Notes: generated from the sequence alone by a model not told the origin. A DNA stretch of 32,000 bases from Patescibacteria group bacterium (GCA_041649575.1 JBAZMW010000001.1:60001-92000), one strand, 5' to 3'; numbered from the stretch's first letter, positions 6,391 through 6,719 are shown. Translations and numbers: made by a program.

Positions 6391-6482
6391 GGAGAGATGG
6401 CTGAGTGGCTGAAAGCGGCGGTTTGCTAAACCGTTATACGTCCTTTTCGGGCGTATCGAGGGTTCGAATCCCTCTCTCTCCG
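6391..6482 (+). tRNA. tRNA-Ser (anticodon GCT)
   Basis: Hand-folded cloverleaf. Acceptor ggagaga/tctctcc, 3-bp D stem, anticodon stem gcggt/accgt with loop ttGCTaa. Long variable arm (atacg..cgtat), T arm gaggg-ttcgaat-ccctc, discriminator g. No encoded CCA. Confidence 0.9.
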
Positions 6483-6522
6483 TATCAGGAATTTAGCCAT
6501 AATTATGGCTAAATTCCTGATA
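6483..6522. repeat. Perfect 40-nt palindrome abutting the tRNA-Ser 3' end
   Basis: tatcaggaatttagccataa|ttatggctaaattcctgata. The second half is the exact reverse complement of the first half. Confidence 0.95.
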
Positions 6523-6719
6523 AAGAAAGTGAAGGGATGAGAAGGGCAGTAATGAGCCAAGTCCCGACTTTAGTCGGGGCGCAGGCGAGATGCCGACAAT
6601 TCCGAGCTGGTGCAGGAATTGTCGCTGCCCAGGCCGCGAATCCCTCTCTCTCCGCCTTCGCCCGGCCAAAGCGGGCTTCGGCGGACAAGTCCGCAAAAAG
6701 CACCTAATTTAAATCATAG
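6523..6719 (+). other. GC-rich hairpin-dense spacer between the two tRNA-Ser genes; possible small structured RNA or integration scar
   Basis: Hairpins at 6563-6568/6573-6578, 6594-6603/6615-6624, 6660-6664/6672-6676 and 6681-6686/6689-6694. The only ORFs are implausible antisense ones. The strand of any transcript is not established. Confidence 0.35.
6637..6654 (+). repeat. 18-bp direct duplicate of the tRNA-Ser(GCT) 3' end (partner at 6465-6482)
   Basis: cgaatccctctctctccg occurs at 6465-6482 (T-loop/acceptor 3' half of the tRNA) and again at 6637-6654. The upstream context of the second copy does not form a T stem. Confidence 0.9.

Follow-up and report, generated by a model that had tools for sequence, protein, structure and literature searches.

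A 174-nt structured unit carrying a tRNA-Ser 3′ end between two tRNA genes is probably one copy of a protein-less mobile element family of Patescibacteria

The window (the whole stretch of DNA that was analysed, 32,000 nt from a Patescibacteria group bacterium) contains two intact tRNA-Ser genes in the same orientation and, farther downstream, a tRNA-Arg gene, all of them identified with both ARAGORN and Rfam. The spacer between the tRNA-Ser genes is occupied largely by a unit of 174 nt (6483–6656), which is composed of a palindrome, a decayed antisense arm, a folded core that we call E, and a tail. The features of the locus are as follows.

6291 to 6319, plus strand: promoter-like site TTTACA-17-TAAAGT with a TG, upstream of tRNA-Ser(GCT)
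6351 to 6362, plus strand: exact 12-nt copy of nt 3–14 of tRNA-Ser(GCT), 42 nt upstream of the gene (two matches in 0 of 100 shuffles)
6391 to 6482, plus strand: tRNA-Ser(GCT), intact; its last 18 nt (6465–6482) are the first copy of the repeat
6483 to 6522, no strand assigned: palindrome, 5′ end of the unit (38/40 positions conserved in the metagenome copy L253)
6523 to 6541, plus strand: linker and decayed arm antisense to the tRNA T-loop/T-stem (predicted fold and comparison with sister copies)
6542 to 6634, plus strand: core E, a three-way junction of 93 nt (covariance model R1, 83 bits, E-value 2.9e-16; covariation; the single-sequence fold agrees with the consensus)
6544 to 6549 with 6625 to 6630, plus strand: helix P1 of E, GGGCAG with CUGCCC
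6556 to 6558 with 6584 to 6586, plus strand: helix P2 of E, GCC with GGC, carrying hairpin A (6561–6580)
6594 to 6603 with 6615 to 6624, plus strand: helix P3 of E (hairpin B), with the conserved apical part GAGC..GCAG
6637 to 6656, plus strand: tail, an 18-nt sense copy of the tRNA-Ser 3′ end (T-loop C56 to discriminator) plus CC, 3′ end of the unit
6657 to 6719, plus strand: two GC-rich hairpins, then an AT-rich spacer (63 nt), outside the conserved unit
6720 to 6806, plus strand: tRNA-Ser(TGA), intact
7370 to 7443: tRNA-Arg

The 18-mer CGAATCCCTCTCTCTCCG, with which tRNA-Ser(GCT) ends, occurs exactly twice in the window; the copy at 6637–6654 is identical to that in the gene, and none of 100 shuffles contained any match even when two mismatches were allowed. 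The repeat reported in the first-pass annotation is thus exact, and the 40-nt palindrome that it placed directly against the tRNA end is indeed perfect. The GC-rich stem-loops that it contrasted with the flanks were also borne out: the GC content is 0.60–0.64 over 6550–6699 as compared with 0.27–0.35 in the flanks, and both strands of the spacer fold far better than shuffled sequences (z = −6.9 and −6.5). Two more hairpins follow the second 18-mer, as it had described. The first base of the unit comes immediately after the discriminator of tRNA-Ser(GCT); the tRNA gene is left intact, and the outcome is a direct repeat of 18 nt. The palindrome has an imperfect inverted-repeat extension, with the tRNA 3′ end on one side and 6523–6535 on the other (8 of 13 positions match), and because the palindrome runs on into an inverted copy of the tRNA end, the antisense arm may be the far end of one fold-back.

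No promoter-like site was found on the plus strand between the two tRNA-Ser genes, and no canonical terminator is present at the locus. Since the sole promoter-like site is the one upstream of tRNA-Ser(GCT), the unit must be transcribed through if tRNA-Ser(TGA) is to be made. It would then be part of a tRNA-Ser(GCT)–tRNA-Ser(TGA) operon transcript and would presumably be discarded by RNase P and 3′-end processing as the tRNAs are cut out. Of the suggestion that the spacer is a small structured RNA co-transcribed and processed with the tRNAs, the structure stood, and co-transcription is suggested by the position of the promoter. The 12-nt tRNA copy at 6351–6362, which has a small hairpin (CGTC-TGTTAG-GACG) 3′ of it, resembles the partial tRNA copies found at the 5′ ends of other tRNA genes (see below) but has no E core; it is possibly the footprint of a lost unit.

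At the Rfam gathering threshold only the three tRNAs of the window passed, and a permissive scan of 6350–6850 (E-values up to 10) returned nothing credible in 6483–6719; no known Rfam family explains the region.

The boundaries of the unit were provided by an independent copy, L253, which was found by scanning metagenome contigs for the exact core pattern and then applying the covariance model R1 described below. L253 shares 6483–6656 alone with the genome under study (87% identity) and nothing else at the nucleotide level. The homology extends from the palindrome's first base to ...CTCTCCGCC and no farther; L253 has CCA at this point. Two central changes in its palindrome (AATT to AGCT) preserve a perfect palindrome, both E hairpins contain compensatory changes, and the tail differs at one base. 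The 12 nt upstream of the unit in L253 are not a tRNA end; the contig begins there, and a tRNA could lie slightly farther upstream. Because this second copy, in an unrelated context, shares only 6483–6656, the unit is a self-contained 174-nt module. The second 18-mer is present in that unrelated context as well, and therefore it travels with the unit, and a simple displacement of the chromosomal tRNA end does not account for it. The region from 6657 to 6719 is outside the unit: its hairpins have no repeats elsewhere in this genome, and the homology with L253 ends before them. The idea of a miniature element with a 172-nt unit is accordingly retained, the period being real and the unit being 6483–6656. 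The 40-nt palindrome was absent from 400 other genomes of the class and was found only in L253.

In the predicted fold, AGGGAU at 6533–6538 pairs with AUCCCU at 6640–6645 of the tail and closes the core. The arm is decayed in the window, whereas sister copies carry an exact 9–11-nt antisense of the T-loop and T-stem of their own tRNA. One such sister was detected by a BLAST search of the spacer against its own 0.92-Mb assembly, which revealed a second core copy, 77% identical, between tRNA-Ile(TAT) and tRNA-Val(GAC). This copy is preceded by an exact 11-nt antisense of the T-loop and T-stem of tRNA-Ile, and it ends with the last ~20 nt of tRNA-Ile, not of tRNA-Ser. Its differences from the window copy are compensatory in both internal hairpins.

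Further copies were collected by BLAST in 60 relatives, and 16 of them were aligned to build the covariation model R1; 14 of the 22 predicted pairs already showed double changes in that alignment. With 50 distinct copies, 96.1% of cells were paired and 21 of the 22 pairs had changed on both sides, a level that was reached in none of 500 shuffles, while slid registers gave 27–37%. Compensatory changes, whose absence the first-pass annotation had listed among its grounds for refutation, are therefore present in nearly all pairs of the fold. The consensus E consists of P1 (GGGCAG/CUGCCC), P2 of 3 bp with a variable hairpin, and P3, a 9-bp hairpin with a GAGC-loop-GCAG apex, joined by conserved, purine-rich junction strands; the consensus core ends in AGGA, that of the window in AGG. 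The conserved fold measures 80–100 nt and the elements of the family ~125–175 nt. A 46-nt sequence at L021:505-550 (minus strand) has the outer helix and tail of E only (GGGCAG..CUGCCCUGG; covariance-model E-value 0.006) and may be an internally deleted derivative of E.

R1 detected seven copies in the 0.92-Mb genome, every one beside tRNA genes; 6 of its 50 tRNA genes carry E. Copies were found in 29 of the 34 genomes of the same GTDB family, with a maximum of 25 in a single genome (of 0.7 Mb), and the family total amounts to hundreds; the remaining 5 of the 34 genomes are free of E, and the set of tRNAs that carry it varies between genera. Outside the family, under stricter filters, R1 copies were present in just 2 of a sample of 150 genomes from the rest of the phylum. 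Among GTDB genomes, full copies were confined to Patescibacteria records, some of which are mislabelled. The public records of the Patescibacteria genome G019 are titled 'uncultured Gammaproteobacteria ... ERP119705_co25_105'. Matches to the core pattern in Actinomycetes and other high-GC genomes were rejected as chance, because the model finds no full E there. In a nearest-neighbour analysis, the E cores did not cluster by tRNA, by 5′ or 3′ type or by genus, and the closest relative of the window copy was the tRNA-Ile copy of the same genome. With its core match, its tRNA-matched flanks and its membership in a multi-copy set of variable presence, the window copy belongs to the core type R1 family as defined here.

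Copies of E occur in three contexts, and every neighbouring tRNA gene lies on the same strand as E. In the 3′ type, the order is tRNA, an AT-rich and often terminator-like hairpin, the antisense arm, E, an optional linker hairpin and the sense tail, which runs from about C56 to the discriminator with or without CCA. In 10 of 23 copies, the arm agreed with the copy's own tRNA for 8 nt or more, as compared with 25 of the 492 pairings in which arms were set against other tRNAs. When the flanks were tested generically for a closing helix between them, with G-U allowed, the result did not rise above shuffles. At two loci (L048 and L055), the repeat extends into the trailer/terminator and even the arm, and measures 70–76 nt. 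A different GC-rich element of ~230 nt lies behind the tRNA-Ser(GCT) gene of a relative (L029, G020:C13, at ~140–390 of the oriented extract); the tRNA 3′ end is repeated on its flanks, twice in antisense and once in sense, and the element represents a second, unrelated core type with the same architecture.

In the 5′ type, a partial tRNA copy, from ~12 nt of leader to about nt 33, lies between the promoter and the tRNA. Here E takes the place of one or two D-loop bases, or in some copies is located at the variable loop, and is followed by an AT-rich spacer and the intact gene. Between genomes G012 and G027, whose 5′-Glu copies are orthologous, 7 sites differ, and at 6 or more of these the partial tRNA copy agrees with its own tRNA. 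In the left flank of the 5′-Glu copy of G027 (L010/L043), another 40-nt GC-rich hairpin is nested between D-stem bases of the partial tRNA copy.

The third type is not associated with tRNA genes: E lies between a run of C and a run of G, which form base pairs with one another, in intergenic regions and within ORFs. The ORF copies examined, five in three ORFs, all read through in frame (L030; L040 and L025 in one ORF; L120, antisense), and one ORF is continuous through two E copies. As a result of its E insertion, a phosphoesterase of G019 has 223 aa, as compared with ~168 aa in the ortholog of its congener G006, a gain of 55 aa. A small GIY-YIG nuclease-like ORF (L030:1174-1473) is located directly 3′ of this gene in G019, which is probably a coincidence. 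A reverse-transcriptase gene contains E in the antisense orientation; what might be taken for linkage of E to a neighbouring reverse-transcriptase gene was rejected, E being an insertion inside that gene. Head-to-tail arrays are also found, with three units in L057 and two in L197.

We also looked for filled and empty sites among relatives. G021 provides an empty-site counterpart of the window locus: just 13 nt separate its two tRNA-Ser genes, and the same ORF comes after them. None of the refuting conditions named in the first-pass annotation therefore applied, the unit being multi-copy, conserved with compensatory changes, matched by an empty site and left unexplained by Rfam. Nearly all of G006 was then compared with 20 E loci of G019, and at least eight loci proved to be filled in G019 and empty in G006, with a flank identity of 88–96%. 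The junctions differ from one locus to another. A clean 8-bp direct repeat (TCAAATTT) accompanies a single insertion, a composite of two units, whereas two tandem 3′-type units at tRNA-Leu repeat the tail plus ~24 nt of trailer; overall, repeats of 18–80 nt were seen at tRNAs, and 10–46 nt were replaced in ORFs and elsewhere. A single transposition chemistry does not fit all of these heterogeneous junctions. In the G019 assembly, which is in ~160 pieces, many contig ends coincide with E copies.

The unit is not just a scar but a well-preserved representative of a family of structured mini-elements that carry tRNA ends. We favor the interpretation, with a probability of roughly 0.6, that window 6483–6656 is one copy of a selfish, protein-less, non-autonomous and structure-dependent family of mobile elements of Patescibacteria. 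The family is apparently undescribed so far; a full-text search of the literature returned no description of such elements in CPR/Patescibacteria. That the element is selfish DNA is something we infer.

The first-pass annotation had read the duplicated tRNA end as the classical footprint of integrase-type integration, and had considered a scar left after excision. If this were true, the unit would be the scar or miniature of a tyrosine-integrase island in the tRNA-Ser 3′ end, with an attL/attR duplication and an interior deleted to ~150 nt. The direct repeat from the T-loop to the 3′ end is the very segment that such integrases duplicate, and the layout equals that of a Campbell-type integration of a circle carrying a tRNA end. 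However, the unit contains neither an integrase nor any other ORF or coding remnant, and its interior is not what remains of a larger island but a conserved, covarying, self-contained module with the many copies described above, which also occurs in D-loop copies at tRNA 5′ ends and in ORFs. The exact core pattern was, in addition, absent from the viral contigs of IMG/VR, and a viral origin of E was rejected for this reason. We regard the integrase reading as very improbable and already largely refuted; the repeat is present, but the rest of that claim was not upheld.

Another possible hypothesis is that E is a host-functional structured RNA of tRNA operons, retained for its action on the neighboring tRNA. 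It might, for example, pair with the T-arm/acceptor strand of the precursor and control folding, processing or decay, or it might serve as a decoy for tRNA-binding enzymes or toxins. The strong structural conservation and very strong covariation could have this meaning, as could the way in which the 5′-Glu partial copies of G012 and G027 track their own tRNA. The constant co-orientation of E and tRNA, the specificity of the arms for their own tRNA, the placement of 5′-type copies between promoter and tRNA, and the position of the window copy inside an operon are likewise consistent with this hypothesis. Arguing against it, E is present at just 6 of the 50 tRNA genes of this genome, the carrier tRNAs differ among genera, whole genomes of the family do without E, and close relatives lack it at the same tRNA. 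Furthermore, the same core is found in frame within protein genes in either orientation, and many 3′-type copies are located behind a terminator-like hairpin. The base-pair statistics are also unlike those of typical functional RNAs: in 1076 paired cells, G-U (21) is hardly commoner than A-C (14). Thus, a host function seems unlikely to us.

The small excess of G-U over A-C, together with the preservation of the fold in copies that are antisense to genes, indicates that the structure may be read as single-stranded DNA, or that the copies are simply young. Under the preferred mobile-element interpretation, the E fold would be recognized by machinery acting in trans, possibly as single-stranded DNA, and the tail, through its homology, would direct the unit to the corresponding tRNA end. 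If a circle of ~172 nt integrated at the tRNA 3′ end, the expected layout would be the one observed, [tRNA...tail]-palindrome-arm-E-[tail]. Alternatively, a double crossover of a tRNA-unit hybrid, with the tail as the right-hand homology, would yield the same layout. The head-to-tail arrays would fit unequal crossing-over.

One could also imagine that the element moves through an RNA intermediate or is itself a catalytic RNA. According to this hypothesis, the RNA of the unit would be cut from the operon transcript by tRNA-processing enzymes or by an E ribozyme, would have a tRNA-like 3′ end with CCA and might pass through a rod-like circle. A reverse transcriptase would then turn it back into DNA, either switching templates to tRNA sequences or aided by recombination there. 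Such an element would be comparable to a bacterial SINE or to the Neurospora retroplasmids. Several observations agree with such a route. One discriminator immediately precedes the unit, and another, its own, closes it together with CC(A); tails with CCA are found although the adjacent gene has none at three or four tRNAs (L039, L059 and L053 among them), the window having CC; arrays are head-to-tail; reverse-transcriptase genes are common in these tiny genomes; and E forms a compact three-way junction, the purine-rich strands of which are conserved. The CCA evidence is ambiguous, however, because CCA is gene-encoded in many relatives, and genes with CCA whose tails lack it are just as frequent. 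Moreover, several tails enter the trailer or terminator of the gene, and the 5′-type copies include leader. This leader and trailer sequence in the repeats points to DNA or primary transcripts as the source and speaks against a retrocopy of mature tRNA. The presence of reverse transcriptase is uncorrelated with E, no known ribozyme or intron model matches, and the wobble pairs have no RNA-strand bias. We consider a route through RNA or catalysis to be quite unlikely.

A more specific form of this hypothesis would make the unit an RNA-level parasite of tRNA processing, that is, a bacterial retroelement that encodes no protein and is guided by tRNAs, or else a new class of small catalytic RNA. 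The unit would be transcribed as a tRNA trailer and would return to DNA at a matching tRNA gene by reverse transcription or recombination, with the antisense arm and the sense tail guiding the two target strands. Precise release by the nucleases that form tRNA 3′ and 5′ ends would be possible because the unit starts after a discriminator and its own end imitates a tRNA 3′ end, to which CCA would be added. To us this proposal appears quite doubtful.

We searched the 34 genomes of the family for candidate mobilizing enzymes, and no mobilizing enzyme emerged among RVT_1, Y1_Tnp and TnpB. An RVT_1 reverse transcriptase is present in 24 of the 34 genomes and an IS200-type Y1_Tnp in 9 of 34, neither distribution tracking that of E, and TnpB is present in none (0/34). 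In this respect E is unlike REP/BIME sequences, which are mobilized by RAYT Y1 enzymes. The reverse-transcriptase genes of the family encode ~330–400 aa and are probably diversity-generating retroelements; the genome under study has two (G000:C3:74894-75508 and C3:188740-189411).

Several identities for the folded core were considered and rejected. One subfamily of E, which includes the window copy, resembles part of a group I intron at the level of BLAST: ~45 nt (..AAUGAGCCAAG-hairpin-..AGG.GAGA..) are similar to the P8 region and J8/7 of the intron in L021. That intron (L021:1407-1660, G015; RF00028, 91 bits) interrupts a tRNA in the anticodon loop. Unlike group I introns, however, E has a different helix topology, and most subfamilies of E lack the resemblance. 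We dropped group I intron ancestry, because the likeness is limited to one subfamily and the model tests were negative in both directions (RF00028 gives no match to E, and R1 no match to the L021 intron). A hammerhead or hairpin ribozyme core did not fit by eye, the junction strands being NARYGAG and GAGAYG as compared with CUGAUGA/GAAA, and a pseudoknot of the hairpin B loop with the 3′ tail was, by inspection, unsupported across variants.

By analogy, the closest known kin of the unit are the Rickettsia palindromic elements (RPEs) in function and the att duplications of integrases in layout. Neurospora Mauriceville and Varkud retroplasmids and SINEs have RNAs with a tRNA-like 3′ end and CCA, form tRNA hybrids and integrate by homology at tRNA genes. 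E likewise derives from or mimics tRNA ends; unlike these elements, it has no linked reverse transcriptase, and its leader and trailer sequences argue against mature tRNA as the sole source. With MITEs and REP/BIME sequences, E shares the properties of being short, non-coding, multi-copy, hairpin-forming and variable between close relatives, and the composite insertion with its clean 8-bp target duplication is MITE-like. Unlike MITEs, E has neither fixed terminal inverted repeats nor a fixed length of target duplication, and its flanks are borrowed from the target or are C-run/G-run arms.

The tRNA-targeting integrative elements (tyrosine-integrase islands and prophages, with an att site in the T-loop sublocation) resemble the unit in having a direct repeat from the T-loop to the 3′ end, in keeping the tRNA gene intact and in carrying their own copy of the tRNA end. 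E differs from them in its lack of an integrase, its unit of 174 nt, its antisense arm besides the sense copy, the occurrence of its core also at tRNA 5′ ends and in ORFs, and its repeats of 8–80 nt.

To our knowledge, arms copied from tRNAs beside tRNA genes are undescribed for RPEs, whereas most E copies lie beside co-oriented tRNA genes and have arms copied from that tRNA. In other respects E and RPEs are alike: both are small (~100–150 nt), protein-less, structured and present in many copies in a reduced genome, and both are inserted in frame into protein-coding genes without stops, RPEs being found in stable-RNA genes as well. R. bellii, for example, has 526 RPEs, 53 of them in protein genes and one in the tmRNA gene (PMC1458961). 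E has a three-way junction as its core and not a simple palindrome, and it belongs to another phylum; we therefore limit the claim to E working like an RPE.

What is new here is a calibrated model of the core type with a narrow taxonomic range, the three contexts, the pairs of filled and empty sites, and the exact boundaries from an independent copy. For practical purposes, E repeats break metagenome assemblies, as in the fragmentation of G019 at E, and the pseudo-tRNA fragments that arise from E units confuse annotation. The carriage of sequences that match the target hints at an undescribed homology- or guide-based route of insertion, and if an RNA intermediate or catalysis were true, the family would define a class of bacterial retroelements or ribozymes not known before. 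Patescibacteria have genomes that are among the smallest and most streamlined of bacteria, yet they carry up to 25 copies of the folded, non-coding E, which is found at tRNA genes that are essential and present only once, and within protein genes too. E offers a handle on how mobile DNA persists in tiny genomes without encoding anything.
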